Shown one piece after another: positions 1,688 to 58,683 of a DNA stretch of 64,000 bases; within the stretch, counting starts at the first letter, position 1; each line of letters begins with the position of its first letter. The position numbers and the translations under genes were made by a program. The notes under the pieces are model-generated. The model did no database searches and had not been told where the DNA came from. It saw only the letters and a list, made by a program, of their open reading frames with translations. Source of the DNA: a virus (lineage: Duplodnaviria; Caudoviricetes); the IMG/VR virus record IMGVR_UViG_3300021426_000077, positions 36,428 to 100,427 of that record; one strand, 5' to 3'.

Positions 1688-4600
1688 TTAAATCTTTCTG
1701 TGGGCATATTGATAAGCTGTGTCAGCTAAATTAGTTAAAGCAGTTTCAATCTCGAAAGAATCTTTGACATTCGGGAATTCAGCTTTAATTTCTACTCTTT
1801 GATCAACAGTACCTCCAAAAGCAGAACTCATAAAGTTAGCTTTCATACCACTGGAAGAATAATTTGTTAAAGCACTACCAAGAGTAGAAGTCATTTGTCT
1901 AACAATATCAACCGCGGAAAGGATATTGCGTGTATCCTGAGCATTGAGAACAAGTTCTTTCTGATGAAGAACTGCAAGGCGTCCGTCCTTACCTCATTCA
2001 CCAGTGTATCCGCCAGTGTCAAATAGTTGATCTTCTTTAATTCATCCTAAATCGCCGCCATCTAGAGTTTCTATATGGATATTATATGAGCCATATCCAG
2101 AACCTCTTGAAAAACTTGAAATCCTAATTTTATTTGCTTGTCCAGATAAACTGTTACCGAATCCGCCACCGCCTCAAGAATTTCCATAATATGAACCTTT
2201 ATATCCAGCAATTGAGCCATTTGGGAAAGTTTTTTTCGTAGTTGCAGATTCCATCGTAGACGTTGAAGTAGAAGTCGGTTTTTCTTCTGCAGGTTTAGCA
2301 TCTTCAGGTAATGGAGCCTTTGTTTCATATACTAAATTATCTGTATTAATTTTTTGTAAATCGTTAATAGCTTCTTGAGCTTTACTTAATCAATCAACAG
2401 CTGCGGCTAATTCTTCAGTATATTTTTTAATATTATTCATGCCTTCAGTTAATTTTTCATTTTGATTTTTAAAACTGTCTGTTAAAGAATCCATCGCATT
2501 GTTTAATCCATTTTCGCCAGTAATAGCATTGGCAGCATCTTCTAATGCAGGCCTTAAACCAGTTTCTTCATCAATTAAAGCTTTCTTAACATCTGTAATA
2601 ACACCATCTGGACCAGTTAATTTATTACGAAGTTCTTCTGCTTCCGTTTTTAAAGTATCATTCATAGTAGAAGTTGCATCTTGTATATATGGGAATAATT
2701 TCTTTGCTAAATTATTTCCAAAATCCCATCATGCAATATCTGTATTTTCTATTAAGTTGCCTTGATCATCAAATAATTGTCCAAGCATTTCTTGAGCAGC
2801 TGCTGCAATATCTGCGGTACCATTTTCTACCATGAAGTTTAATACATCTGACATACCTAATTGACTATCTGCTAAATCTTCATTAAGATGCTTCATATAA
2901 TTTAAGAATTTTTCTGTTAATTCTCGACTTTGTTTTATGCGTTCTTCTTCAGTTAGATTCATATTTTTATTTAAATCTGCCCATTGACTAGCATAATCTT
3001 TTAAAGTATTTCCTAATTCTTCTGCTGTTTTTTGCCTTTGTTCTTTTGTAAGTTCATAAGCATCTTGTACTGCTTGCATATACTCTTGACGAGCTTTTGC
3101 AATATCATTTTGATTTGCACGATATACATAACGATAATTACCTTGACTATCTCGACGTAACTGCATTTGGTTTTTATTTTGTTGAGCATCCTCAAGGGCA
3201 ATCTGTTTTTGAAGAATTAGAAGTTTAGAATTAGCTAATTCAACATCATATTCAGACATAGATTCTTGATTCTTTAATAAATCTAATTGTTCTTGCATTT
3301 GTTTGCGGATTTTGTTTTGAGTAGCTAAAGATGAACCTTGAGCATCATTAAGTAAATCATTATATTTGCTACGAAGCTGTTCAATTTCAAATGTCTTTTC
3401 AACTTCATCTCGGTAATTATCAACTATCTTCTTATTTCATTCTCAATTTTGATTAATATGATCTAGATTATCTTCACGGATAGTCGCATTGTACATTTGC
3501 TGAACTGCCGCATCAATAGCATTCTCATAAGCTTCAACGAAAGTCTCCGCAGACTCTTGAGCTATATCGCGCATTTCATCTTGAACATCATTCATACGAT
3601 CTTCAATAGAATTTGCTAATTCTTCGTTTCCAGTATCTAAAGCTTCTTGATATTTTTTTTGTCAATACTTATAAATATTAACATATTGACCTAATTGAGC
3701 TTTTAATGTTTCAGCTTGACGTTTATTAATGTCGCTTAAAGCTTTATAACTTTCGTCTCCATATGATAAAGCATATATATCAGCTAGATTTTCGAGCTCT
3801 TCTGCAAGACGTTCATATTTTTCAAGTTGACGATCTTGCTTATCAGCTATTTCATCAAAACCATCAATAACAGTATCAACAATATCTTCTTGTAAATCCT
3901 GTCAATCTTGACTTAATTCAAGAACTCTTTCATATCCTTCTTGATATGCTTCTGCTAAAGCTTTTTGATTATCTCCAAATGGATTTTCACCAGCTGTTGG
4001 ATCATTTCTATATCATTTTTCAAGTTGCTCTAAATCAGTTGTTGCAAGGCCAAGAAGACCATTCTTTAACCTATCATCTGTTAAGCCTTCTTTTAATCCG
4101 GTAAAATAATTAATTGAAGCTTGAATTGCTTCTTTTTCTGCTATATCATCTGTAGCATCTTGAGCTGCAAGTTTACCATTAATAATTTCTTGATAATATT
4201 TCTCTGCATCTTCTCGTCCAATTTCAAAACTAGTATTTAATTTAAGAAGATCAACAGTTAATTCTCTAAATGGAGAATCACTAGGCATACCAGTTAAGAA
4301 ACCTTGAAATTCTGCTCATTTTTCATTTAAATCTTTAAGATTATCAATAGCTTCCATAGAAGTTTTATAAAGTTCAATATTAATATCTGTAATAGAATCT
4401 TTAAGCTCTTGAATTTTATTCTTAGTAGATTCAATTTCTTTTTGAATATCATTTTGTCTTTGAGCATTCTCAAGGATTGCTGCAGAATAATCATCATATT
4501 TCTTAATAGCTTCATCAATAGTTTTTGTTAGATCTTCATTACCCGCAGCTGCCGCAGCATTATATTGGTCAATTAATTTATTATGTGCTTCATCAATTTT

Positions 4601-7600
4601 TGCAGATATAGTTTCATAATTAGTAATGATACCATTTTCATCATATTCTGGAGCAGGAATATTAAAGTTAATACCACGACCTTTAAGAATATCTTCAGCA
4701 AGTTTGTCCTTAGCTTCCATCGCGGCTTTTACATCTTTTAGCTCGCTATCGGCCGTATCTTGAAGAATTTTTAAACGTTCTTCTTCAAGTTTAATTTCTT
4801 GCTGAATTAAATTAATTTGCTTTTGCTGATTTGCTCGAGCTTTATCACCAATTAATTTATCTTCTTGCTTTTCAATTCCAGAAAGTTGTTCCTTAAGTTT
4901 ATCTAATTGAGAATCAACTTTCTCATAATAGTTCTTTTTATGTTCTTTCTTTTCTTTTGGCTGAATGGTTTTAGCTTTGCCACCGCCACCGCCACCACCT
5001 TTGTTGTGGGCAAGAATTTGATTATGACCAACATAGTAATTGTGGTTATCAGAAACTTCAAAGTTATATACTGTAGTAGTTTGAATCTTAACATTAATAT
5101 TAGAAATTACATGTCAATTTCCATCGGCAAACAATACATAATCTCCAATATTAAGTTCAGAAGCCATGATTCATTCGATATCATGCTTACGTCTAATATA
5201 GAATCTGTGGATACCTGTTACGCTAAGAGTTTCATCTTCAATATATAAATCATAAATTTCTTCTGTAGTATTATGAATCATTGTTTGAAGAACTCTGCTG
5301 TATTCATTCTGATGATTTTCTTCATTATATGAAAGAACAATATCACCAACTTGAATTTTTTCAATTTCTTTAAATGAATTTTGGAGAGAGACTAGAGTGC
5401 CTGCAATAAAACAGCTACCGCCACCTCCGCTAGAACGAGGTGCAGCACTACCAGAGCGTTTTTGACTTCCACTGCCACCGGTTTTACGAGCAGTAGAACG
5501 ATTAATATGAAGATTACCTCCAGAACTGTAACCTCCTGAAGTAGTTTTCATTGAAAGTGCTGTTGTAGTTGAAGTCGCAGTATCTGTCATTGGCACTGGC
5601 TCCATACGAAATCCACCTATATGAAAAGATCCTGTAACAGTATCTAATCCAGTTCCAGCTTCATTTAATTTTACCGGAGCACTAACAGGAACATTTATAC
5701 CACCAGTTTCAACTGGTCTCCAGCCATAAGCTTCTTTTTCATCTTCAGTAATTTCACTTTCTTCTTTAACCTCTGCATCTACACCCATTGAAGATAAATA
5801 TTGTTGAGCTTGATCAGCTGTCATTCCAGCTGCATTAATAATATCTTCAAAAGCAGCTAATAATTCTTCTTCTCCACTTAAAGAAGCGCCTATTTCAATA
5901 TCATCTCAACCATTATCATAAAGGATTGATCGAAGATTTGCTGCAGCTTCATAGGCTTGAGTATCATCCATTCCAGCTTGAATTAAAATATCGGTTTGAG
6001 CTGCTTCTCATAAATCTCAATAAGCATCAATATCGCCATTTATCGCAGCTTCTAATGATTCAAGATTATCAGGATCAACAATAAAAGCATCAGACAAACT
6101 ATCCGTATCTAAATCTAACAAATCTTCATAAGTATTTCTTAATTCTTTAGTTGTTTTAGCTAAATCTTCTGGATTAGCATTTTCAAGATCCTCTAAAACT
6201 TCTTTTCAATCATCTATATTATCAACAGTCCGTTCAACAGCTTTATTATATCTTACTTGAGCCTCTGCTGCTTCTTTAATAATACTAGGAAAGTCCTCTA
6301 TATCATCTGCATATTCTGCTAATTGATCATTATATTCATAAATTGCTTTTGCTGTATCTTGTAATGTTTCATTATCCACATCACTATCTGAAGAAGTAAT
6401 TGTTGAAAGATATTCTTTTGGATCAGTATTTAATCCATTTCCTGTACCTGCTAAAATATCGTCAATAGAAATACCATTTTCTAAGCCTTCTCGAATTTGG
6501 CGCAATAATTCAGCAACTTTAGTATCAACTTCCGGATCAGATCAATCAATTAAACTGACAACAGAAGCTTTTTGTTCTGCAGTTAAGTCATATTGATCAC
6601 TTAAAGTATCAATCATCGCTAAACCACGATCACCTTTTTGAGCTCCTCAACTATTTGTGCCATTTTGAGAAACTTGATATTCTGCCAATGCCATTTGTGC
6701 TTCTGCTGCAGCGTTTAAATTATCTGTCCATTCTGCAGCTTGTTGAGCTAAAGCTATTTGATCTTCTAAGACCAATCCAGAAAAACCATCTATAATTTGT
6801 AAATCAGCGATAATTTCTTCATAAGACTGAGCTTCTCTTAATGCACTATCTTTAGACAAAGCATTCGCTTGTACTGCAGTTTCTACTGTTTGTTTATTAT
6901 AATCATAACTATCTTGATTTTGCTGGATGATTGTATCATAAAGACCAATTCTTCTCTCAAGCTCTGTGTTATTATCTAAAAGATTTTGATAATCTTCTGT
7001 AGATAATGTATTTGCTTCACGCATAAGACGATTTTGATTTTCTAATAATTGATTAGCAGTTTCTTCTCTCATTTCTTTAGCAGTTTGAAGCATTTCTGCT
7101 GGATTATTAGAAGTATATTCTGTATCTCTTTGACTTTGAGCGCCTCTTCCACCACCTCTATGCGTTGTGGTTGTGGTTTCGATGCCTAATCTTTCTCTAT
7201 CTTCTGCACTTAATCTATAAGCATTAGAAAAATCATATTCAGTAGCTTCTGTATTTTGTCCTCGTAAAACTGCATTATAATTTAATTGAGCCGCAGTAGC
7301 TTCTTCAATTTTTTGTCTTAAAGTTTCATAATCATCAGCTGCGGTTACTACAACTTCAAGAGCTTCAGCTTGTTCTTCTAGTGCCTGACGTAACTCATCT
7401 GCGCCTTCTCCAGTTTGCTTTCATGATTCATATAATTTATCAATATTTTTTAACCCATCTTTTAAACTGGCAGTATATTCATCTGAAGCACTTATTTGTT
7501 CTTCTAATAATCTTTGTTGTTCTTGGCTTCATTTTTGATAAGCAAAACTCATAGCTACTATTGCGGCTAACCCAGCTAATGCTGCAAAAGTAGCTAATTG

Positions 7601-10498
7601 TATGGCTGTTGCTTTAGCTGTTTCTGCGGCAGTAACTGCTTTAGCAGCTGCTTCATGCTCTATTTCTGCATCTTTTAACGCTTTTTCAGCCATTTGACTT
7701 TTTTCTAAAGCTTGTGTAACTCCAATCTGCTTTTTTTCTAAAAAGAAAGCAGAAGCACCACTACTTTTTTGAGCATCTGCTAATGCTGCTTGAGCTTTTG
7801 TAAGATTCTCAGAAGCATTCTTTACCCTTTCTTGTGCTTCTTTATATTTCTCCATAGCTTGACTTGCTTTATCTTGTAATTCACCAATTTTTGATATAGA
7901 TGAAAAATCAATACCTTTTAAATTTTGAAAAACAGAAGATAAATTTAAACCAGTTATTCTTTTAAAAGATTCATATAAAGTAGGAAGCGAAAAACTCAAA
8001 TTTGTAACTATCTGAAGTAATTTTTCACCCGTTGTTAAATCTGCATTATTTCAAATAGAAGGTAAATTACTTAAAGATTGCATTGCAAAACTTAACTGAC
8101 CAAGTGCTCCAACAATATTAATAATTTGTTGAACACCATCTTGAGAACTCATTCCCTGTTTAAAAGATTCAGCCAATTTACTTGAATCTATTGCTGCTGT
8201 ATCCGTATTTAATTGATTAAGATTAGCTTGATCTAATTTTTTAAGATCTATTTGACTTAAACGTTCTAACTCTTCTATTAACCTTGCAGTTTTTCCTGTA
8301 AGTGCAGCTGTTTGAGTCCCAGCTTCTTTTTGATTTTTTCCAATCTGTTTTATTGCTGCATTATATTCAGTATATTGCTCTCCACTTAAATATGGTTTTA
8401 ATTTTTCTAATGATTGTTCTAATTGTTGAGTAGACCCAGAAAATATTTGGCCACTTTTTTCAGCATTTCTTAATTGATTTTGATATTCTTGCAAAGCTTT
8501 ATTAAATTCAAGTAAGCCTTCTTTTGCAGGCTCTAATTTAGATTTTAAATTAGCAAAAAGATCTTTCTTTTCTTCTTCAGAAAGTTCTTTTAATTTTTCC
8601 ATTAATTGTGAAACATTTACAATACCTTCAGAAAGAAAAGGCGTAAAATCTTTATCTAATAAACTAGCAATTCCAACACCAGTTGCAGACAAAGCTTGAT
8701 CTAATTTTTCCGCTGCAATTGTAGCAGCATTTCCATTCTGAATTAATTCTTGAAGAATAGTATTTGCTTGATTTAATTGATCTGGACTAAAATTTTGAGC
8801 ATTAACTTGCATATATTTAGCAAAATCTAAAGCATTCTGACTGTATTGATTATCTGGATTAGGATTAACCATTCCTAAATTTGTTAAAGCAGCTTCTGAA
8901 TGTTCTAAATTAGCTATTTTTTGCTGTTGAACTTTTTGATTTAAATTAAAATCATTAATACTTTGAGCAAGATGTTTACTAAATAATTGAGTAAAAGCCG
9001 AAGCTAAGCCAAGAATAACAGTTGATCCTCCACCCACAGATTTAAATAATGTATCAAAAACTTCTGCTAATTTGGTTAAAGTATCAATTAATGGATAAAC
9101 CATATCAGTTGTAAATACATCATTAAATAAACCTTCTAAAGTAGCTTGTAATTTAGCTGTTCTACCTTCTAAAGAATCTAAATATTCTTGATTCATTTGT
9201 TCAAGAGTACCAGAAGCATTTATACCAGTAGCTCCAAGATATTCTTGATACATATCAGAATTATCCATTAAAGCAGTAAAACGATTAACTTGATGTTTAC
9301 CTGCCAGTGTCTGTGCGACAGCTTCTTGAGTGGTATCGTCTAAATCTTGTCAAATTACCATTAAATCTTCCATGATATCGTCCATATTACGGACGTTACC
9401 AAGAGAATCTAATACTTGAACTCCAATATTTTGAAGTGTCGAAGTAACTTTGCCAAGACCAATACCATCTTCATCTTCTTTACCTAATTGCAAATCAGAA
9501 AAACGAGCATATAATGTTTTAAGACCATTACCAATTTGTTCTGGCGCTTCTCGTGTTACAGACTCAATTGTAGCAATTTGCGCAGCAAGTGCTTCGCCAC
9601 TAACACCAACTGCATTGGCCATCGAAGCAGCTCTCTGAGATGCCAACGCAATTTCTTCAACATCAGCCGCGGAAATATTAGCAATTAACGCTCAATTATC
9701 CATTGCTTGACTGAGCGCTTCCATGTCATCTTGTAATCCATATGCATTCATATATGCGGTAATTTGATCAGAAGTCGCCGCAGTATCTTGTTGAGAAGCA
9801 TTTGCAAGTTTAGCAGATAAAGTGGCTAATTGCTGAGACTGATTTAAATCATAGCCTTGCTGAGCAAAAATTAACGAAGCATTAGTCATACCCACGGTAG
9901 TTTGACCTACAGCTTTTGCTGCTTCATTAGCTGCTTTAGCATATTCATTCATGCTATCACGGCTATAATCGGTAACAAGCATGATTTGAGTTAGTGAATC
10001 ATCTAATTCTTTAGCATATTCTACTGAACTATGAATTGCATTCATAAATTGACTAAAGAAACTTGAAATTAACCCTCAACGAAATGTATTTTGAAAAGTA
10101 ACAAACATTTTATCTAATTGAGAACTAGTACGAATAATACCAGTATCTAATTTTCCAAGCTGCCCTATTAAATTATTAAATGCAACTTGTCCTTCTGCTC
10201 CCATTTGACCAAAAGCTGTTTTTAATCCTTGGGCTGTAACACCATTATTTTTAAGTTCTTGATTAAATTTAGCTAAATTTAACATTCCAAGAGAAGGATT
10301 AAAAGCTTCTGTTAAAGCATCTCCTAAACCATGAATTTGATCTCGAGCATCAGAAAAGGTTTTTTCTTCTAATAAACCTTTATTACCCATATTCTGCAAT
10401 TTTAATTCTAAATTTTGTAATTCAGTTTTTAATTGAGTTATACCTTTAGAATCTAATTTAGTAGAAATATTATATTCAATACTATTAGAATATTTCAT
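1688..10498 (-). CDS. tape measure protein (~2,936 aa, TGA=Trp) with internal Hint domain
   Basis: 13 track fragments fall in one frame (8811 nt); TP901-like core (AKELDDSLTQIMLVTD, TREAPEQIGNGLKTLYARF); coiled-coil body; C-terminal FDTGGYTGEW...AVLHQKELVLN motif. Confidence 0.93.
5003..5413 (-). other. Hint (intein-like, BIL-type) domain, 137 aa, inside tape measure
   Basis: CFIAGT...IEKIQVGDIVLS...TGIHRFY...W(TGA)IMASELNIGD...VYNFEVSDNHNYYV...ILAHN then Lys; flanked by Gly-rich linkers. Confidence 0.9.
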
Positions 10499-10639
10499 TA
10501 ATTATTTCACCTTCCTCTCGGAAATGTAATCCTTATATCTCCTTTAGAGATAACAATATCTATTATTAAGTAAAAAACATTGTATAAAGATAATAAAAAA
10601 AGACCCTACAGCACATCGCTATAGGGTCTTTCTTATTAA

Positions 10640-11182
10640 TTATTTTACAAATAAACTATCTAATACTTCTGTAGAATCGACAGGGTTTTCTGCTTTTGGA
10701 GGAACTCTATTCATTCCCCACTCATCTGCGATTCTAAGTGCTTCTTTAATATCTTGATTAGTTGTTAAATTTTGTACTTGTCCTGCCATATTTTGAAGAA
10801 CTTCTGAACTGAAAATTTCAGCCTTATTAAGCACCCCTCCAATAGAAAGAAGATACTTTTCATACGCTTCAAAATACTGTGCGGCAACCTGTCCTACGTA
10901 CTCGACAGTATCTTTGTGATTGGCAATTAATTCATCAATCTGTCCTTGCTTGAGGAACTGATCAAACGCGGTGAGTGGATTTTCCGCAACACGAGATCCC
11001 GCGAGGTCATCTAAATCCTCAACTAAATTAAGAATTTCGTGACAAACTAATGCACGTTCAAATACAAACTGATTAAGAAATCCATTATCCTCCGCGGCTT
11101 CAATACATGAATTAATCATATCGTACATTTCTTGGGAAGTTAAAGGACAATTTTTGACTTGTTCTAAGTTAATCATAATCAA
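10640..11182 (-). CDS. hypothetical protein upstream of tape measure
   Basis: Intact ORF with RBS and an upstream sigma70-like promoter near 11213-11242. Confidence 0.7.
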   Translation of the reverse strand: MIMINLEQVKNCPLTSQEMYDMINSCIEAAEDNGFLNQFVFERALVCHEILNLVEDLDDLAGSRVAENPLTAFDQFLKQGQIDELIANHKDTVEYVGQVAAQYFEAYEKYLLSIGGVLNKAEIFSSEVLQNMAGQVQNLTTNQDIKEALRIADEWGMNRVPPKAENPVDSTEVLDSLFVK

Positions 11183-11246
11183 CTCCTTTTGTCTCTTATA
11201 TATTTACTATTTAAGTATAGCATATTTTTCAATTTTTGTCAAGATT

Positions 11247-12854
11247 TTATCCAGATATATATTGAGATAAATTAGCTAAAGAAATGCTTATAGCAACTTT
11301 AGTATTATAAAATTCATTCATTACTGCTAATTTAGTTTTTTTAGATCTTTCTTCAGCAGCTTCTCTTGGAGTTTTAAAATTATCTGATATGTCAACATAA
11401 GATTGCGCATTAATTAACTGTAAATAATCTCTATCTAATCCATGTCCAGAAATGGTTGCATGTGCTGCTACTCTTTTACTTGTAACAACTTCTAACATAC
11501 TTGATAAAACTTGCTGTATAGTAAAAATTCGACCATTTAAGCTCATATAAAAAGCTTGATCATTAGCTCCATCAAATCCCGCCAATGCAGCTAAAGTTGC
11601 TCTGTAAGGAATAGTTTCTTTAAAAGCATTTCATGATCCATACAATAAATCACTTTCTCCAAATGCTGGTAATGTAGCTCCCATATTAATTAAAGTAATT
11701 AATTCACTAGGAGTTAAGTTAGCTTCTCGTGTTAATAATGTTAATAAAGGAGTATTGTCTTGAATGTGAATATTTATCAAATGACCTTCATTATTGAAAG
11801 AAATTTGTTCATAATCTTTTATTGTTATACCTACAATACCCTCTATTGAACTATCGGAAGAACGAATTTGAATATCAGAGACATTTGTTTTATTATTTTT
11901 AACATTGTATATACTTCCAGCTTCTCTTTTATCTAATTTTAATTCATCCATTCTATATTTTTTTAATTCTTCATATCATTCTCCGAATTCACCATCTTTT
12001 GAAAATCTTCTTTCAATATCTATGCCAACGCCAGACGTTTGACTACCAGATAAAGTAGCATTCTGTAAATTTACATGTAAAGAATTTTCTAAAGCAGAAA
12101 AAAAATCTGATTCTCCTTTAACATAAGCTTTTAATATAGCTCATTCAGTAAGCATATCTTTTATATCGCCCATTCAGTCATTAATTTTATCTCCTATGCT
12201 ATTTCAAAAATTCTCATTGTCTTTAACAAAATCAGAATCTAAAAGTCCTCTTAACATATATAGACGTAGTAAACTTTGATTAATACCTTCTTTAGATTCT
12301 GTTCCTAATGGATACCAAAAAATTTTTCCTTTATATGTAGAGCTCATAATTGATTCATAAATACGTTCTTCTTCGGTTTTTCCTCACGATTTTTTTACTC
12401 CAGTAGTATTTCTAGCAATAAATTGATATTTAATCGCTTTATAATAAGCATCTCTTATTGTAGGATTATATTTATCAAATGTATTTAAAACTTCATCAAT
12501 TTTTTCTTTGACCTCTTGAGCATTTTGTCCCATAGATTTTATTTCTGGTACTAATTTCGCTATTGCTTCTCTTGCTCCTGGAAAAGCCATATCAATAGGA
12601 GAAGAATCTAATACAGATGCATTTAACTTTTTTATTAATTCTTCACTATGAAGAATATCGTGTAAATTTTGCATATCTTCGCCTGAAATTTCACTAAAAC
12701 GCATTTCTTGCCTTTTTGTTTGTTGTTTTATGGCATTTTTTAATATATCTGTTTTTGTTTCTGCTATTAATTTTACAAAATTATCTCCTCTTTGTTTAAG
12801 AAAATCTTTTTGTCTAAGAAAAATATAATCATTTACAGCTGTCAAAATTTTCAC
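11247..12854 (-). CDS. hypothetical tail-module protein (TGA=Trp)
   Basis: Three track fragments in one frame joined through TGA codons. Confidence 0.7.
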
Positions 12855-12872
12855 CCCTTAAAATCTCTAATA

Positions 12873-12905
12873 AAAAAGAGGGGCACCCGCAAGGGTACCC
12901 CTCAT
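12873..12905 (-). terminator. rho-independent terminator after the tail-tube frameshift extension
   Basis: GAGGGGTACCC-TTGC-GGGTGCCCCTC followed by a T run on the - strand. Confidence 0.75.
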
Positions 12906-12927
12906 TATGGAGACTATAAGGGTCTCC

Positions 12928-13212
12928 TTACTCTTTAGTTATCTCAGAAGAGTCGTCTTCACTAGGAAGATTTACTGGATCAGTAATCGAGTTATCAAAA
13001 AGAGATATATCTTCAACAACTTCTGGCTCTTTAACAGACGGTTCTACTTCTTCGGTAGATTCTATATTATTTTCAGTAGTCTCTTTATTTAAAGACTCTG
13101 TATTATCAGAAGTGTCTGTATTTTCATCTTCTGGATCATCGGCTACTGAGGTTTCTTCTAAGGTGCCCGCACTAACCTCAGGTTTTAAATTTAATTTAGT
13201 GGGGCTATTTAA
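12928..13212 (-). CDS. predicted -1 frameshift extension of tail tube protein (94 aa, acidic)
   Basis: Start-less open -1 frame begins at the A AAC CCT TAA end of the tail tube gene and ends just before the terminator. Confidence 0.6.
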   Translation of the reverse strand, partial: LNSPTKLNLKPEVSAGTLEETSVADDPEDENTDTSDNTESLNKETTENNIESTEEVEPSVKEPEVVEDISLFDNSITDPVNLPSEDDSSEITKE

Positions 13213-14363
13213 GGGTTTGATGTTTCACCCTCAGCGCCGCCAGTTTCACCTTCAGCACTGTCACTACTTACCGCAGTATCAAAGATGCTGTTGGTATAAG
13301 GATTATCAGCAACCGCGGTGCTAGTTACACCTTCGCCGTAAATATCGGCACCCTGAGTACGATTGGCGTGGCCAAGAATAGTCTTATCCTCGTAATTGTG
13401 TCCACCAGCCTCAGTAGGATCAACGATCTGGAGAGCAGCCATAACCTTCTTAGACTTATTAAACTTAGTATAAGCGGGGAAGGCGTCAATGGTAAAGGTG
13501 AAGGTGGAAGGATCACCAGAGTTAGCCATTGTAAAGGTGAAGTTGGACTGAATCTTACCACGAGGAATGATAAACTGAGCAGGTAGATCCTGACCAGTAA
13601 CTTCATCACGGAAGAGAGTGTCAGCTTCAATGTAGTAATACCCACCAAAACTCTCAGCGTCGATCTGGATCTCTTGAGCACCATCAGTGTGAACTGTGTA
13701 GCAGTCAATACGGACAGTGTTACCACCCTTTACCTGAGAATCAGTATAGTTGGTAGCGTCAACATCAGAAATCTGGAAGTAAACAGAATCAGAAGCTCCA
13801 AGTTGAATCTCGCTATTAGTAACTGTAACAGCAGCACTAAGGGCCTTATCTGTAAAGATTTCCGCAGCCTTAACGGCAGAAAGGAAAGTCTTAGGACCAC
13901 CAGCACTGTCTAAAACAGTAGCATAAATAGGAGCTTCCTTAGAAACAACGATTGTCTCACCATTACGAATATCCGCAGGAAGTTCAACGAAGAACTTGTC
14001 ATTGGCAGTCTCAACAACTAGATCGTAAACTTGGTGAGTGTAGATCTTCTGACCAGCATCGGCACCTTGAGCCTTACGACCCTTAACGATACCAGCACCA
14101 GAAAGCATGGAGAAACTAACGGGAGAAATTAAAGCATCTTCGACAGTGAATGTTACAGTCTTCTCGCCGTCCCAACCGATTAGACGGGGATTACCCTTGC
14201 CGCCCTGAGCGTAAACTGTGGTAGAAGCACCCTCAAGAGAGCTGGTCTTAGCTGTATCTAAGTAGAGAACAGGCTGACCCGCATCAAAGTGCTGATTACC
14301 AATATCTACAGCGGTTAGAGGACGAAAGACAACATCACAGATCTCGCGTACACCCATTCGCAT
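13209..14363 (-). CDS. major tail (tube) protein
   Basis: MGVREICDVVFR...VYAQGGKGNPRLIGWDGEK...FTMANSGDPSTFTFTIDAFP; high-expression codon bias; synteny. Confidence 0.8.
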   Translation of the reverse strand: MRMGVREICDVVFRPLTAVDIGNQHFDAGQPVLYLDTAKTSSLEGASTTVYAQGGKGNPRLIGWDGEKTVTFTVEDALISPVSFSMLSGAGIVKGRKAQGADAGQKIYTHQVYDLVVETANDKFFVELPADIRNGETIVVSKEAPIYATVLDSAGGPKTFLSAVKAAEIFTDKALSAAVTVTNSEIQLGASDSVYFQISDVDATNYTDSQVKGGNTVRIDCYTVHTDGAQEIQIDAESFGGYYYIEADTLFRDEVTGQDLPAQFIIPRGKIQSNFTFTMANSGDPSTFTFTIDAFPAYTKFNKSKKVMAALQIVDPTEAGGHNYEDKTILGHANRTQGADIYGEGVTSTAVADNPYTNSIFDTAVSSDSAEGETGGAEGETSNP

Positions 14364-14494
14364 AAGCGGACCTCCTTTTGTCTAAAAAACGAACAGAAAA
14401 AAATTGTATACAGTCTTTTCCTTTTTTGATATTATTTAGGTTCGCGCTCCTATCTAATATCTCTTATATTCACCCTATCAAGGCTTAGGGAGAA

Positions 14495-15271
14495 TTAATA
14501 TAATGAACGATGCCATTCAAGAGGTTCTTCCATTTTTGAAGTATCCATTAAAGGCATTGTGGATACCCGCATATAGAAGTCAGATTTAACTTTTTCAAAA
14601 TATCTCTTATATACATCATATAATTGAAATGGGGTATAATTAAAAAAGATATTTATATCCATCTGTAATCCAACAGCTAAAGTAGAACATTGATCACAAA
14701 AGATTGAACGAGGACCATCTGATTCAGCCTGCATAGCATGAACCTTTTCTCGTCCTGCTTTAATCTTATCTGCAATTTTCTTTGCCGCATCATTCGCAGG
14801 ATTATAATCTGGTTCTCTTTCATTATCTATATGTGGAAGAAAAGCATCATTTAATACAATTTGAAAATCTTCAAAATTAAAAGGATGAATTCTTCCAACT
14901 ATTTTAGTCGTCTCTTCTTCTTGTTCTATTGAAAAATCTATTGAATTTTCTTCAACAGAAACAATATAATCTGGAAAGATTAAAGTAAAAAGATTTAAAA
15001 TTAAAGTTTTTACTGTTTCATCTTGATTGATCATCATCATTAATAACTGAAAATCTGATATAATCTCTAAATCAAGATTACCCTTTTTTACCATGTCAGT
15101 AAAATATTCCATTTTAGCTAACATTTGAACCGCCGATAAAAAATCATTTTCACCAAATAGCACTATATCTTTTATCTTAGGCTGAGTAATAAATATGTTC
15201 GCACTCTCAATTGGCAATGGTTGCCCAGAGAGAATTAAACCTAATTTTGTTTTATCTCCTTGTATACTCAT
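14495..15271 (-). CDS. tail-module protein (possible assembly chaperone)
   Basis: Intact ORF in tail module. Confidence 0.55.
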   Translation of the reverse strand: MSIQGDKTKLGLILSGQPLPIESANIFITQPKIKDIVLFGENDFLSAVQMLAKMEYFTDMVKKGNLDLEIISDFQLLMMMINQDETVKTLILNLFTLIFPDYIVSVEENSIDFSIEQEEETTKIVGRIHPFNFEDFQIVLNDAFLPHIDNEREPDYNPANDAAKKIADKIKAGREKVHAMQAESDGPRSIFCDQCSTLAVGLQMDINIFFNYTPFQLYDVYKRYFEKVKSDFYMRVSTMPLMDTSKMEEPLEWHRSLY

Positions 15272-15286
15272 AAAACAACACACCTA

Positions 15287-15907
15287 TTAATAAGAACCAT
15301 TTAAGTCCTGATGTGAAGGTAGTGTAGGATCAAGATTTACGCTATCATCTGCATTAGAATGAGTTGCAATATACCTTAAAACAATTCCTCCTAAATATTC
15401 GTTCATTACAATTTCGCTAGCACCCATAAATTGTAAAGTACCAATACCAGAAAGTTTAGTGCCATTTAAAATACCATCAATATATCCCGCAATTTGATAA
15501 GGACGAAGTTTATAATCATCTAATTCCCAATAGTCTAAATGACAAATAATAGAAAAAGTAATTGTACAATCACGATATTGTGGATTACTTGTAGGAATAA
15601 AATCATCAAATTCTAAAAGAATATATGCTTTAACCTCTTCATGCTCACCAAATTCAAGTTTAGGAACATTTTTAAGATACTGCTTATCTTTTAAATCTTG
15701 AAGATTCATACCATCAATAATTTCTTGATATTGTATCTGAGTATCATCAAGACAATCCGCAGTATTAAGCACTAAAAGTCGTTTTAATTTATCAGAATAT
15801 GGGCGACTTTCAATAAAAAGTCGCCGCCAAATCGTTTCTTGATCTGTTTCGCAGGAGAGAAAAGTAGATTTAAAATTATTAGCTAACAATACCGATGCTT
15901 TTTTCAT
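15287..15907 (-). CDS. neck/tail completion-like protein
   Basis: Start MKKAS with RBS; position between head closure and tail tube genes. Confidence 0.55.
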   Translation of the reverse strand: MKKASVLLANNFKSTFLSCETDQETIWRRLFIESRPYSDKLKRLLVLNTADCLDDTQIQYQEIIDGMNLQDLKDKQYLKNVPKLEFGEHEEVKAYILLEFDDFIPTSNPQYRDCTITFSIICHLDYWELDDYKLRPYQIAGYIDGILNGTKLSGIGTLQFMGASEIVMNEYLGGIVLRYIATHSNADDSVNLDPTLPSHQDLNGSY

Positions 15908-17027
15908 TCTTATCTCCTGTAAATGATCCAATAGTAACAGGTAAAGTATAAGTTTCATTATCTTCAGTAACACACGTTAAAGTAAACTTACCTTTGCGAC
16001 CAGTTAATACTTCAAGTTCGCACTTAGTACCATCTTGAGAATTAATACGAACTAAAGAAGAGTCTACACTAAATGTACCATTAGCTTCATAAGTATAAAT
16101 ACCATATGGAGCAACTGTATCTGGTCCATTAATATATCCTCTTTGTCAATCTATTGTTACTTCTAAACTATACTCACCATAGTTAATAGTGTAAGTACCT
16201 ATTGCGCCATCATGAATTCTAACTTTACACATATTTCCATCATTCATAACATCTACGATTTCTACTCTTGGGTTGCCAGTAACAAACCAAGAGAAAGAAC
16301 TTTGTAAATAAGATTTTGGAATATAATATCCGATAGTAGTATCTTGCGGGACTAGTGTTTCACCAACGATAACAGATTCAATATCGTCAGCTTTCTTAAT
16401 TTCCGGAAGTTCTGCAATTGGATTGTCATAATATTCTTGAACTTCTATTTCAAGAATGCCTGGGACAGAAATACTATCTGTAACTTGGACTTCTCAAATA
16501 TGTCCATCAACTTTAATATGTGTAAAACGTTCAAAAAATTCACGAGTTTGTTTATTTAATTTTATAAAAATAGTACCAGAAAGATTTAATTCATTAATAT
16601 TAATTCCACGTTTTTGAAATCAACGAATATCTGTCTCTGTCGGACCTTGAAAATAAATTCAGTATTCTGTATCATCAATTGTAATAGTATATCTACAACG
16701 AATGATTTCTGAACGGAGATATGCTGTTTCTGTTAAAATTGGAAGATATACCATCCAATGGGTACAATCATCTAATATTTCAAAAACATCCCCAGCTTCA
16801 AGACCTGCATCATATTCAACAGATAGAATTTTTTTGTCATAATCTGGTTTTAAATTATTTAAATTTATAAGTGCGGGCCAAGCTTCACAAAGAGGAGTTT
16901 TAATTAATCTACTATTATAATCGTTTTTTAATGCGGCCCGCAGACTATTTAATTTTTGTTGATTAATTCGACCTAATGCATTTCCTCCTTGATATTGAAG
17001 TCGCGCACTAAGAGTCTTTAATGACAT
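15879..17027 (-). CDS. head closure/neck-like protein with beta-rich (Ig-like?) C-terminus (TGA=Trp)
   Basis: Frame reads through several TGA to TAA at 15879; track shows only the first 122 aa. Confidence 0.65.
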
Positions 17028-55046: not shown

Positions 55047-55171
55047 ATAATTTTCCTTTCTGTTGGGGAAAAATAATTTTACTATATAAATTAAAAATTA
55101 AGTTTAAATTTTAATAAAAAAAGACCCTTATACGAAATGTATAAGGGTCAATATAAACAGAGTATCTTCTG

Positions 55172-55242
55172 AGGCCATATTCAGAATCGAACTGAAGACA
55201 GGGCATTACAAGTGCCTTATTATACCATTTAACTATACGGCC
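55172..55242 (-). tRNA. tRNA-Thr(TGT)
   Basis: Cloverleaf; GGCA-CTTGTAA-TGCC; TTCGATT T-loop. Confidence 0.8.
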
Positions 55243-55263
55243 GCAGAAGATACTCGATATACT

Positions 55264-55340
55264 TGGAGATAACGAGAATCGAACTCGTGTCCAGGCATTT
55301 TCACTTTGGCTTTCAATGCCTGTCGAACCCATCTATCCCC
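55264..55340 (-). ncRNA. mini-tmRNA (tRNA-like domain only)
   Basis: GGGGATA...TTCGAC AGGCATT-loop-AATGCCT GGAC ACGAGTTCGATTCTCGT TATCTCC A; G3:U70 pair. Confidence 0.75.
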
Positions 55341-55575
55341 ATTGGAGCGGGCCACGTTTCAGTACCATCTTACTAGTCGTATTCTAATCCTTTATAAAAT
55401 CATGTCTAGAATTAATTTTATAAATTAAGGTACACCCGCATATAAAAATGACAGGCCCAACCCTATCTGGCAGAGGATTACCCCTGGAGTTTCCCAGCTT
55501 TCACAGGTGACTAAAGTCATATATGCGACCAGGTGGAGAGCCCATTATACCTGCGGGCTCGCTGTTATTGTCATA

Positions 55576-55649
55576 TGGCTGGGACTGAGAGAATCGAACT
55601 CCCATTAGCGGAACCAAAATCCGCGGTCTTGCCGTTAGACGAAGTCCCA
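55576..55649 (-). tRNA. tRNA-Gln(TTG)
   Basis: GCGGA-TTTTGGT-TCCGC; encoded CCA. Confidence 0.92.
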
Positions 55650-55652
55650 ATT

Positions 55653-56156
55653 TTATTGATCAGAATTAATAGGTAGATCTGTACAGAAGAATACGCCAGA
55701 ATGCTTACCTTCAAACACATCTCGAGCGAGATCTTCGTAAAGAGTTGATTCAAAACCATGATAGTCATTTAGATTATCATTATAATATTGAACAACCTCA
55801 TTACGAAAAAGCATATAAGAAACAGGATTAGAGAAAATACTAGGAGTATCAATCATCCTTGACATAATAGGATTATTATGAAAAGCTGCTTCAAATAAAT
55901 CGGCATTAGTATTACCATTATTAGCAGGAACAACCTTAATTGAAAGTGTAACATTTCCAAAATTTTTAGTAGAAGGAAGAAGTTGACCTAATGCATCTGC
56001 TTTGGTTACACCTTCTACATAAAGTGTTAGAATTAGTTCGTCTTCATCAAACTTAATAGTAATATTTGGATCTGGATTAAATAGAGCTTCAATTTTATGA
56101 ACATAAGAGGTCCAAGGTGAAGCAAGTCCTACCGAAGAATTGATTGATTTAGACAT
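55653..56156 (-). CDS. hypothetical phage protein
   Basis: VVQYYNDNLNDYHG...LYEDLARDVF...VFFCTD. Confidence 0.7.
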   Translation of the reverse strand: MSKSINSSVGLASPWTSYVHKIEALFNPDPNITIKFDEDELILTLYVEGVTKADALGQLLPSTKNFGNVTLSIKVVPANNGNTNADLFEAAFHNNPIMSRMIDTPSIFSNPVSYMLFRNEVVQYYNDNLNDYHGFESTLYEDLARDVFEGKHSGVFFCTDLPINSDQ

Positions 56157-56181
56157 ATTCCATACCTCTTTCTATTTTAAA

Positions 56182-56255
56182 TGGAGCGGATAGCGGATCC
56201 CGAGACCGCATCTGGAGCTTGGAAGGCTCTTATTCTGCCTTTGAACTATACCCGC
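56182..56255 (-). tRNA. tRNA-Gly(TCC), atypical T-loop
   Basis: GAGC-CTTCCAA-GCTC; GCGGGTA/TATCCGC-TCCA. Confidence 0.85.
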
Positions 56256-56264
56256 ATATGCATA

Positions 56265-56341
56265 TGGCGCCCTTTGCGAGAATCGAACTCACAACTTTTG
56301 GCTTAGGAGGCCAACGCTCTGTCCTATTGAGCTAAAAGGGC
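56265..56341 (-). tRNA. tRNA-Arg(CCT)
   Basis: TTGGC-CTCCTAA-GCCAA; CCA end. Confidence 0.93.
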
Positions 56342-56377
56342 AAATATAGAAATTCTACATATTGTAGAAGTAATATG

Positions 56378-56453
56378 TGGTACATCCTGTGAGACTCGAA
56401 CTCACGCTCTTTCGATTAAGAGTCGATTGCTTTACCATCTAAGCTAAGGATGT
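56378..56453 (-). tRNA. tRNA-Lys(CTT)
   Basis: TCGA-CTCTTAA-TCGA; CCA end. Confidence 0.92.
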
Positions 56454-56454
56454 A

Positions 56455-56532
56455 TGGCTCCTCAAGTAGGATTTGAACCTACGACACGCGGATTAACAGT
56501 CCGTTGCGCTAACCAGGCTGCGCTATTGAGGA
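56455..56532 (-). tRNA. tRNA-Asn(GTT)
   Basis: CGGA-CTGTTAA-TCCG; CCA end. Confidence 0.93.
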
Positions 56533-56542
56533 ATTTATATAG

Positions 56543-56672
56543 TCGCGGATATATTTAAAACAGTATAATATCGTGCTCTACCTTTGAGCTAAGTAAACAT
56601 TTGTTTACTATTGGATTCGAACCAATAACATCGCCTTTAATCAGAGGAAGTAACTGTTTTACCATCACGCAA
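56543..56672 (-). ncRNA. YrlA-like RNA with circularly permuted tRNA domain
   Basis: T-arm, then loop-closed acceptor AGTAAAC-AAAT-GTTTACT, then D-arm, inside a TGAT..TACTTC terminal stem. Confidence 0.7.
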
Positions 56673-56675
56673 TAA

Positions 56676-57005
56676 TTAACTTATATATTTATTACCATCT
56701 CGTTTTCAAGTTATTTTAGGAGTTAGATTTATAGGTTCTTTTTGATAATCTTCTCTTCATAGCTTATTACTTAAATCTTTAAGAGCTTTTTTAGTTTCTG
56801 GCCCAAGAGGAAAACCATCTAAATCTTCCCATAATTTCTCAATATCTCGATCTTTAGAATGAAAATATCTATCTATGATTCCCGCATAATCATCATACAT
56901 AATTTCTAGAATTCCAATAGGAACCCAAATATTTTGATCTGCGGCTTCCATATCTTCAATTTCATGGATGATCATTATAAAATTATTCTTAGAAAATTTA
57001 GCCAA
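56676..57005 (-). CDS. hypothetical protein (TGA=Trp)
   Basis: Reads through two TGA to TAA at 56676. Confidence 0.55.
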
Positions 57006-57055
57006 ATCTACCTCCTTAAAAAAAAATAAGCCAAAGTAGATTTGGCTATTCTATT

Positions 57056-57718
57056 TTAATCTGTAGCATATTTTCATTCATACCCGTATGCAGTATGACG
57101 CTGATTTTGATTTTTACAAACTCTACCAATGCAAATACTAATATTATTAAGCTGACCTGTTGAGATTTTTTGATCATAAACCCATTGAGCAGCTTCTCTT
57201 TGAGAATTAAAACTTTTTATTATTTGCCCGTTTTTTAAAGCAATAACCTTTTTAGAATTTCTTTTATGAGCATTAATTTGTGTATTTTTAATACCAGAAT
57301 TTAATAATACTCTATGAACAGTATCAGAATCACATTCAAAAACATTACAAATTTCTTTAATTAATTTTCCTTGAGAAAACAAATCAATCATTTTTTGATA
57401 ATCTTCTAAAGAATAAGTCATTCTTCCATCTCCGCCTGGAGTGGCATTATACCCTTTAGAATAACTCCCATAATAATTTATTCAATAAATTTCTCTATCT
57501 GAAAGAATTGAAATATCGCATTCTTCAATTAATTCTATATAAAAATGTTCTGAACCATATTTATTAATTGCTCGATACAAAGGTCTATGTTCATAATCTC
57601 GTCTAGGAGCATCTTTAAGATGTTCTTTAAAACGATCTTCTATCGTAGGTAATAAAGTTTTACCAATATAAACCTTATCATTAATATCATTTTTTATGAT
57701 ATAAATTTTTCCAATCAT
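57056..57718 (-). CDS. GIY-YIG homing endonuclease with NUMOD1-like domain (TGA=Trp)
   Basis: GKIYIIKN...VYIGKT...RFKEH...REIYW*I...GYNATPGGDG...TAYGYEW*KY. Confidence 0.9.
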
Positions 57719-57819
57719 AAAATTTACCTGCCAATCTTTAATATTTTTCTTTATTTTAAATAAAAATTGGCAGGTTTTTATAATAAAAACTTGCCCAATT
57801 TTGGCAAGTTTGCCAAATT

Positions 57820-57911
57820 CACGCCCTGAAGGATTCGAACCCTCACCCGAGGTTTTGGAGGCCTCTACCCAGGTTTTGAAGACCTGTGTGCTACCATTAC
57901 ACTAAGGACGT
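57820..57911 (-). tRNA. tRNA-Trp with UCA (opal-reading) anticodon arm plus a second CCA anticodon arm
   Basis: ACGTCCT TA GTGT AATGGTA GCAC A CAGGT-CTTCAAA-ACCTG GGTA GAGGC-CTCCAAA-ACCTC GGGT GAGGG-TTCGAAT-CCTTC AGGGCGT G. Confidence 0.85.
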
Positions 57912-57914
57912 ATA

Positions 57915-57990
57915 TGGTCGCGAGATGCTGGTGTTGCTCCAGCTTTCTCCGGCTTATGAGACCGGATCAGATACTGACCTGCCATCCGCA
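57915..57990 (-). tRNA. tRNA-Met(CAT), atypical
   Basis: CCGGT-CTCATAA-GCCGG; T-loop AGCAACA; CCA end. Confidence 0.7.
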
Positions 57991-57993
57991 ATA

Positions 57994-58069
57994 TGGTAGC
58001 GTGTACCAGATTTGAACTGGTGATCACTGGCTTGAAAGGCCAGGGTCCTTACCGCTAGACGAACACGCC
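57994..58069 (-). tRNA. tRNA-Glu(TTC)
   Basis: CTGGC-CTTTCAA-GCCAG; CCA end. Confidence 0.92.
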
Positions 58070-58077
58070 ATATAATT

Positions 58078-58482
58078 TAATGTGGAAATTTTGTGTATTC
58101 TAAAATTATGCGACCCCGTAAAAAAATATCGCATATATATATTATAAAATAAGGGAGAGGTACACGAATCTAACATGTAAGAGGAGGAACTCTAGAAAGG
58201 AGAACAACAGATCCGCTTTATTATTCTTTCTTTAAGACTTAGGAAGTAAGAACACACCCATCACACATTATTAAAATCAAAAGGAGCGTGCGGAAATACT
58301 TAATTTAGTTTTTGCTATACCAAGCAATAAAAAGGCGGTATTAATATTTTTCATGAATATTTGAAGTAACTAAATTACAATCACGCACTTTAAATTTTAG
58401 AGGAAATTTTAGAAAACGTAGATTTTGCATTATCACCAACATAATATTATGATTTTGAAGTAACGTTTTCTCTATCACTCTA
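58078..58482 (-). ncRNA. three tandem TGAT/TACTTC-motif RNAs (58398-58482, 58288-58388, 58078-58270)
   Basis: Same covarying terminal stems as 56543-56672; preceded by a TTGACA/TATAAT promoter at 58487-58516. Confidence 0.7.
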
Positions 58483-58521
58483 TTTATATTATAACAAAAT
58501 ATTTCTATTTTGTCAAATATT

Positions 58522-58607
58522 TGGTACGGGTAGTGGGACTCGGACCCACAAGAGCTGTGCTCGGCAGATTTTAAGTCTGCTGCGTTTGCCAATTTCGCCA
58601 TACCCGC
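58522..58607 (-). tRNA. tRNA-Leu(TAA)
   Basis: GCAGA-CTTAAAA-TCTGC; long variable arm; CCA end. Confidence 0.92.
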
Positions 58608-58609
58608 AT

Positions 58610-58683
58610 TGGTTGCCGTGGATGGTTACGCTCCATCTTCTCCCGATTATAAGTCAGGTGCCCTGCTATTGTGCTACACGGCA
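58610..58683 (-). tRNA. tRNA-Ile(TAT), atypical T-loop
   Basis: CCTGA-CTTATAA-TCGGG; CCA end. Confidence 0.78.

Follow-up and report, generated by a model that had tools for sequence, protein, structure and literature searches.

Proteolytic processing of the tape measure protein (TMP), or ruler, is known in model phages, for example with gpH of lambda and pb2 of T5, where the cleavages lie near the C-terminus and require other factors. Type-A bacterial intein-like (BIL) domains, reportedly described by Amitai in 2003 and by Dassa in 2004, are located in variable regions of bacterial surface and secreted proteins. They contain no endonuclease, and the residue that follows them (position +1) is not a nucleophile. 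Without such a nucleophile they can join their flanking sequences, the freed amine attacking the thioester (review PMC4031507). In the BIL2 domain of Tetrahymena thermophila BUBL the thioester is resolved by the side-chain amine of a lysine in the downstream partner, forming a Lys-ε isopeptide bond (PMC8616854). Canonical inteins, that have Cys, Ser or Thr at +1 and occupy conserved sites, have been found in the TMPs of actinobacteriophages (preprint of 2025, bioRxiv 10.1101/2025.01.02.630785). Here we describe a Hint domain of 137 amino acids (aa) lying within the TMP encoded by a 64,000-nucleotide (nt) stretch of a Caudoviricetes genome (positions 36,428 to 100,427 of IMG/VR record IMGVR_UViG_3300021426_000077, hereafter the window). 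We propose that it is an optional type-A BIL cassette that excises itself from a glycine-rich hinge of the TMP, with rejoining of the flanks, and give this reading a probability of about 0.45. That the cassette is active, optional and self-excising is, taken by itself, probable.

The domain occupies residues 1696–1832 of the TMP, and reads CFIAGTLV ... VTGIHRF ... VYNFEVSDNHNYYVGHNQILAHN. A first-pass annotation of the window had described a minimal Hint domain running from Cys1696 to His-Asn1832 between SSGGGGS and KGGGGGGGK, and this is confirmed from the sequence. The profile search suggested there identifies the domain as PT-HINT (PF07591, E = 7e-22), with scores of 78.5 bits (P0002) and 73.4 bits (whole TMP) against a gathering cut-off of 27.7, well beyond what chance would give. 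The models for intein and Hedgehog Hint domains give only marginal scores on this segment. Intein_splicing scores 36.4 bits on a 177-aa piece (cut-off 35.8), and the intein_Cterm model TIGR01443 scores 20.6 bits (cut-off 15.6). The nearest relative of known structure in terms of sequence is the BIL domain of Clostridium thermocellum (PDB 2LWY), aligned from end to end with 35% identity (E = 6e-20). An AlphaFold model built from an alignment of 20 sequences has a predicted local distance difference test (pLDDT) value of 92.2 and a predicted template modelling (pTM) score of 0.87. The same C. thermocellum domain is the top Foldseek match for this model, with template modelling (TM) scores of 0.86/0.92 and a root-mean-square deviation of 1.3 Å. 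It is followed, in order, by Tetrahymena BIL2 (6Y75/6TMM; TM ~0.85), mini-inteins and the Hedgehog Hint domain (1AT0). BIL2 is thus the second-closest solved structure, but is eukaryotic, located between ubiquitin-like domains and 24% identical to the domain in the window.

The likeness to the type-A BIL domains is close. The C. thermocellum domain is of almost the same size (138 aa), and shares with that of the window the initial cysteine (Cys1), the TxxH motif, a VYNF-type block F and the terminal His-Asn. Like the type-A domains in general, the Hint of the window lacks both an endonuclease and a Cys, Ser or Thr at +1, and it is inserted where the host protein is variable, in a poly-Gly hinge beside a hypervariable segment. 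The lack of an endonuclease had been anticipated; none is matched by Pfam, and a length of 137 aa leaves no room for one. On each of these points that can be judged from the sequence the domain is a member of the type-A BIL/PT-HINT class, and autocatalysis is predicted. It differs from the described type-A BIL domains in that the host is a phage TMP, and in that the TMP-borne domain always lies in a poly-Gly hinge, is always followed by lysine and is present in zero to three tandem copies. We found no published description of a BIL or PT-HINT domain in a TMP in a literature search.

Two other classes of Hint domain have to be considered at this point. A canonical mini-intein, undergoing four-step class-1 splicing, would likewise have the HINT fold, interrupt a phage structural gene in frame and be missing from some alleles. 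The weak Intein_splicing and intein_Cterm matches, the mini-inteins among the fold matches and the actinophage TMP inteins (bioRxiv 10.1101/2025.01.02.630785) all point the same way. However, with lysine at +1 in every copy no branched ester can form, the site is a low-complexity hinge rather than a conserved site, and the best matches are BIL domains. Canonical class-1 splicing, judged unlikely in the first-pass annotation on the ground of the +1 lysine, is refuted by this residue, and a canonical intein has next to no chance of being the right description. Alternatively, the best Pfam family being PT-HINT, the domain might be a pre-toxin Hint that releases a C-terminal effector or toxin into the host cell. 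In polymorphic toxins the Hint domain is followed by a variable toxin domain, with an immunity gene, whereas here it is followed by the conserved C-terminal half of the TMP. That half, the more conserved of the two, is neither polymorphic nor similar to a toxin; it terminates in the C-terminal motif of TMPs and matches no Pfam toxin. We rejected the polymorphic toxin module, and consider release of a toxin to be highly improbable.

The predicted catalytic residues are strictly conserved. A search with the whole TMP revealed a large family of proteins, mostly of 2700–3150 aa and of metagenomic origin, with more than 100 full-length homologues, of which 120 were retrieved. Conservation was counted over 54 full copies of the Hint domain that are 55–100% identical among themselves. 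Cys1, Phe2, Thr6, Thr66, His69, both tryptophans, the VYNFEV, NHNYYV and ILAHN sequences and the +1 lysine are invariant in all 54, and the block B histidine is also invariant in the more distant Hint set A2. The residue at −1 is serine in 42 copies and glycine in 12, while glycine is present at +2 in 53/54 and at +3 in 52/54. When 12 diverse TMPs are aligned the Hint domain stands out as one of only a few stretches dense in invariant residues. Comparisons of DNA drew on IMG/VR and MAG loci. Compared with the nearest relative for which DNA is available (L008) the ratio of non-synonymous to synonymous substitution rates (dN/dS) of the domain is 0.038 at a dS of 0.48. On these sequence comparisons, the catalytic set is intact and under purifying selection. 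Conservation of this kind does not discriminate between a hitch-hiker and an adaptive cleavage device, since any insertion into an essential protein has to retain the ability to leave.

The +1 lysine is found in all Hint-bearing TMPs across three genetic codes. Carriers using the standard code (code 11) are L013 (3261 aa) and L017 (at least 4410 aa); those reading TGA as tryptophan are the window, L008–L012, L019 and L033; and those reading TAG as glutamine are L014 (4304 aa, two copies), L016 (4834 aa, three copies) and L032 (4374 aa). The two tryptophan codons within the domain of the window (W1776 and W1795) are both TGA, as had been noted in the first-pass annotation. Both positions are TGG in relatives that include the standard-code phage L013, confirming the reading of TGA as tryptophan. 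With the 137-aa domain as query, phmmer gave 3491 matches at E ≤1e-10 in a library of 1.84 billion representative proteins, and the best 150 of these were inspected. Among these 150 there are 11 further giant TMP homologues with one to three Hint copies (P0122–P0124, P0127, P0131, P0133, P0134, P0137, P0138, P0141 and P0145). Each hinge copy in the 11 is followed by lysine; P0133 has an additional copy outside the hinge that is followed by isoleucine. Over all the copies in the best 150 proteins the +1 residue is lysine in 80/201 and arginine in 17/201.

The Hint domain is absent from 69 of the 120 homologues and present in 51, four of which have two tandem copies separated by KGGKS-like linkers. 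Tandem copies in TMPs are old (dS ~0.8). The Hint-less homologues had been proposed as a check on the first-pass annotation, and all 69 have an unbroken glycine-rich tract at the same site, often with a central lysine or arginine (GGGG-K-GGGG); the hinge of P0025, for example, is SSSGGGGGGKGGGGGGSKAKTIEPKEKK. Removal of residues 1696–1832 from the protein of the window leaves SSGGGGS-KGGGGGGGKAKTIQPKEKK, that is essentially a Hint-less hinge. Compared at the level of sequence, the GGGG-K-GGGG of the Hint-less proteins is the product expected from excision and rejoining. The part of the protein that follows the Hint domain is 1084–1131 aa in length in the carriers, and many distant Hint-less relatives (30–37% identity) have a glycine-rich hinge ~1000–1100 aa before the C-terminus. 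The shared hinge site and the length of the C-terminal part indicate a conserved two-part build of the TMP, with the Hint domain always in the joint. From these alignments the hinge divides the proteins of the family into a variable N-terminal part and a C-terminal part of ~1100 aa.

The domain behaves as an exchangeable module. On a TMP tree of 115 sequences, from which the Hint columns were excluded and which is unrooted so that each change is either a gain or a loss, the presence of the domain requires at least seven changes, compared with a shuffled mean of 36. The identity of relatives to the TMP of the window steps sharply at the junction between residues 1695 and 1696. Thus P0004 is 18–38% identical upstream, 91–96% identical inside the Hint domain, and then falls to 75, 68 and 30%; P0005 rises from 28–40 to 100% at the junction, and P0003 falls from 92–95 to 76–80%. 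This step indicates that recombination exchanges the Hint domain as a module. The trees of the Hint domain and of the TMP disagree, and tandem copies are not sisters in the former: copy 2 of P0034 clusters with the only copy of P0024, and copy 1 of P0029 with P0038. In the window the domain is bracketed by a pair of 18-nt direct repeats in (GGN)n tracts. Taken together, the stepwise identity, the incongruent Hint tree and the bracketing repeat suggest that gain, loss, duplication and exchange occur by recombination in glycine-codon tracts, apparently with no involvement of a homing endonuclease. Lateral transfer of the Hint domain alone was also considered as the cause of the high similarity to L008. 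It was rejected, as the whole segment comprising residues 1696–2654 is at low dS; in other partners, such as P0004, the Hint alone does stand as a separate block of similarity.

We propose the following sequence of events, in which the catalytic chemistry is modelled on that of the BIL family. After translation, using the TGA-reading tRNA of the phage itself, the Hint domain would fold. Cys1696, aided by Thr1761 and His1764, would convert the Ser1695–Cys1696 peptide bond into a thioester. Asn1832, aided by His1831, would then cyclise, with breakage of the Asn1832–Lys1833 bond. The 137-aa globular domain would in this way be out of the ruler before the tail tube closes over that stretch. The freed amine of Lys1833 (α or ε) would attack the thioester to give ...GGGGS-KGGGG..., the hinge as it is found in the Hint-less relatives. 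In an alternative end state the TMP would remain as two fragments, of 1695 and 1104 aa, and some cleavage by-products are to be expected with or without rejoining.

The principal alternative is that this second state is the end of the process, i.e. that the Hint domain splits the TMP into parts of 1695 and 1104 aa that act separately or stay associated non-covalently, cleavage being the selected function. The fragment sizes agree with those predicted in the first-pass annotation, which expected cleavage and a built-in maturation protease. The expectation of cleavage is in keeping with the intact catalytic motifs, and with the absence of Cys, Ser or Thr at +1; it is incomplete in that type-A BIL domains also join their flanks (PMC4031507). 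Several observations favour cleavage alone. Assays of type-A BIL domains give mostly cleavage products and less spliced product (PMC4031507), and in another review these domains are described as unable to ligate (PMC7765530); both points also weigh against rejoining. The hinge and a C-terminal part of ~1050–1130 aa are conserved across the family, and scission would be more assured with two or three copies in tandem. Post-translational processing of the ruler would also have its counterpart in lambda (gpH to H*) and T5 (pb2), with the difference that the TMP of the window would contain its own catalyst, in the middle of the protein. Other parts of our argument for rejoining could be read differently. 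The invariant lysine could merely tune the cyclisation of the asparagine; the lysine or arginine in hinges that lack the Hint domain could have been there beforehand as a target, instead of being left as a scar; and the failure of a globular domain to fit within the tail tube is inferred rather than computed.

Set against cleavage alone is the fact that 69 of the 120 homologues encode a TMP that is uninterrupted through the hinge, including P0052, which is close to the carriers P0035 and P0036. This suggests that continuity is the default working state of the protein, and alleles with and without the Hint domain seem able to replace one another. Hydrolysis offers no account of the invariant +1 lysine. 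Moreover, the N-terminal part has a typical TMP N-terminal domain and the C-terminal part a typical TMP C-terminus, as would be expected if both belonged to a single ruler. The suggestion in the first-pass annotation that the C-terminal 1104 aa form a separately ejected segment is not supported; this region ends in the conserved TMP C-terminus that the Hint-less relatives also have. The built-in maturation protease itself is supported in part: a BIL-type Hint domain is indeed present in the TMP, but its optional presence, its copy number of zero to three, its exchange as a module and the invariance of the lysine suit such a role less well. An optional cassette that removes itself fits better with the 69 Hint-less proteins, the variable copy number and the module exchange than does a dedicated maturation device. 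On balance we regard cleavage alone as a serious rival, if less likely than not. Rejoining through the amine of the +1 lysine is tentatively preferred as somewhat likelier than plain cleavage, because an unbroken ruler is normal in the Hint-less relatives, because the two kinds of allele appear to be interchangeable, and because hydrolysis would leave the invariant lysine unexplained.

The +1 lysine might itself be the ligating nucleophile, its α- or ε-amine attacking the Ser1695 thioester once the asparagine has cyclised, giving a lysine-based splice and possibly an isopeptide branch, or a linkage between chains of the TMP bundle. This specific role seems to us less likely than not, but by no means remote. 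A role of Lys1833 comparable with that of the lysine used by BIL2 is put forward purely as a hypothesis, by analogy. Were it true, lysine-based rejoining would be a natural protein ligation distinct from all three intein classes, in a Hint cassette that spreads by recombination in (GGN)n tracts and needs no endonuclease to do so.

It might also be supposed that the domain is retained in the TMP without processing it, either as a structural knob or as a thioester generator that links the N-terminal part to another molecule. Hint domains are able to transfer their N-terminal flank to other nucleophiles, such as cholesterol for Hedgehog and other proteins for Tetrahymena BIL2, both of which are among the fold matches (1AT0 and BIL2), and the poly-Gly flanks would allow a folded domain to hang off the coiled coil. 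Yet the terminal His-Asn, which is required only for C-terminal release, is present in 54/54 copies, and the domain ends at this point with neither a sterol-recognition nor an adaptor region. A TMP bundle would contain three to nine of these globular domains, probably too many for the inside of the tail tube, and the presence of the domain is optional. Retention is therefore improbable.

If the Hint domain is active then the ruler of many uncultured gut and rumen phages would be edited after translation by its own built-in catalyst, and we know of no model phage in which the ruler edits itself in this manner. The existence of Hint-bearing and Hint-less proteins provides a natural test of whether the tape measure needs to be a single chain. 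The strict +1 lysine in its poly-Gly context makes the domain a candidate for splicing without Cys, Ser or Thr, a chemistry that would find use in the traceless ligation of proteins. In terms of evolution, no homing endonuclease accompanies the cassette as it moves, is duplicated or is lost in phages of three genetic codes, with repetitive glycine codons appearing to serve as the recombination joints.

The identity of the host protein as a TMP, also proposed in the first-pass annotation, is supported by matches of its N-terminal region to TIGR01760 (tape_meas_TP901) at 111 bits and to PF10145 at 83 bits, each exceeding the respective cut-off. These domain matches, together with the place of the gene between those for the tail tube or chaperone and the distal tail genes, put it among the TP901-type TMPs. 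The reading frame contains 25 in-frame TGA codons, and is open only under code 4. The gene lies within a late structural operon of terminase, capsid and tail genes, in which no sheath gene was seen. A virion structural gene is located upstream, while the gene downstream matches no PHROG family. Residues 501–1695 are 14–61% identical to most relatives, and the C-terminal flank contains invariant blocks at residues 2350–2460 and 2829–2931. The TMP is a patchwork in which adjoining blocks of 100–400 aa differ in their nearest relative (14–30% as against 90–99% identity). This is seen for residues 501–1695 and 1913–2032, with more sharp breakpoints near 1912 and 2650. The coordinates of the features are listed in Table 1.

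Table 1. Features of the TMP gene, its Hint domain and the TGA-reading tRNA, with positions in the window
Feature	Position	Strand	Basis or remark
TMP gene, 2936 aa with TGA read as Trp	1688..10498	-	TIGR01760 and PF10145 matches, homologues
N-terminal flank ('N-extein'), residues 1-1695	5414..10498	-	TMP N-terminal domain and hypervariable coiled-coil region
Upstream half of hinge, SSGGGGS; -1 residue is Ser1695	5414..5434	-	sequence read
(GGN)n tract, upstream copy of 18-nt direct repeat	5411..5428	.	repeat family D2
Hint domain, type-A BIL/PT-HINT class, 137 aa, residues 1696-1832	5003..5413	-	PF07591, 2LWY, AlphaFold model
Cys1696 codon (TGT), predicted nucleophile for N-S acyl shift	5411..5413	-	Cys in 54/54 copies
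Block B, T1761-G-I-H1764 (TxxH motif)	5207..5218	-	Thr and His in 54/54 copies
TGA codon read as Trp1776 (Hint position 81)	5171..5173	-	Trp in 54/54; TGG in L013 (standard code) and L019
TGA codon read as Trp1795 (Hint position 100)	5114..5116	-	Trp in 54/54; TGG in L013 and in L010 copy 2
His1831-Asn1832, terminal HN, predicted site of Asn cyclisation (Asn codon 5003-5005)	5003..5008	-	ILAHN in 54/54 copies
Lys1833 codon (AAA), +1 residue, not a canonical nucleophile	5000..5002	-	Lys in 54/54 copies
(GGN)n tract, downstream copy of 18-nt direct repeat	4982..4999	.	repeat family D2; 83% identity, spacing 429 nt
Downstream half of hinge, KGGGGGGGK	4976..5002	-	sequence read
C-terminal flank ('C-extein'), residues 1833-2936, 1104 aa	1688..5002	-	ends in conserved TMP C-terminus
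tRNA with anticodon UCA, able to read TGA	57819..57912	-	ARAGORN

The tRNA with the UCA anticodon is required for translation of the TMP, including both TGA codons of the Hint domain. It is labelled tRNA-SeC by ARAGORN, and is 94 nt in length compared with 72–86 nt for the nine other tRNAs of the cluster (55171–58683). A long variable arm, or else an insert, may account for the additional length.

A megablast search of the phage collection with the TMP gene gave no match. No Hint domain was found in the TMPs of isolated phages by tblastn, which matched only distant Hint domains or inteins in other genes, such as those for helicases, ribonucleotide reductase, portal and hypothetical proteins of Heliusvirales. 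The Heliusvirales gut phage L001 (Ruminococcus phage NatCom_3870, PV036417.1), encodes three paralogous hypothetical proteins with Hint domains that are ~32% identical (3351–5069, 5547–6434 and 7243–8850). The +1 residue is serine or alanine, and none of the three is a TMP. Scanning bacterial and archaeal assemblies with TMP motifs revealed ~30 giant TMP homologues, mostly in bins of metagenome-assembled genomes (MAGs) from rumen, rabbit and gut; only two of the homologues contain the Hint domain. The contigs of these homologues (L029–L058) are 100–150 kb in length, and come from rumen, rabbit, buffalo and human gut MAGs named as Bacilli, Erysipelotrichaceae, Lachnospiraceae, Clostridia and others. 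They are probably phage contigs that have been mis-binned, and so allow no reliable assignment of a host.

The triple-copy TMP of L016 is encoded by a 4834-aa open reading frame with 12 in-frame TAG codons (1889–16393, plus strand) on a 434-kb IMG/VR jumbo-phage contig, and its three tandem Hint domains are linked by KGSTD and KGGD. Longer arrays are found in four proteins of 600–1350 aa (P0139, P0176, P0184 and P0189), in which four to seven tandem Hint domains were located and phmmer matched up to eight stretches. The linkers in these arrays are just 0–2 residues in length (HN|KG|CF, HN|K|CF and HN|CF), and for some copies the +1 residue is Cys1 of the following Hint domain. Lastly, distant PT-HINT domains with poly-Gly flanks and glycine at +1 occur in L018 (1132–5853), L021 (9866–14314), L022 (5547–9995) and L023 (9482–10792). 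They are located close to the N-terminal end of tip-attachment proteins resembling lambda gpJ, and ahead of a Gp38-like adhesin region; TMPs are thus not the only phage tail proteins to have Hint domains set in glycine tracts.

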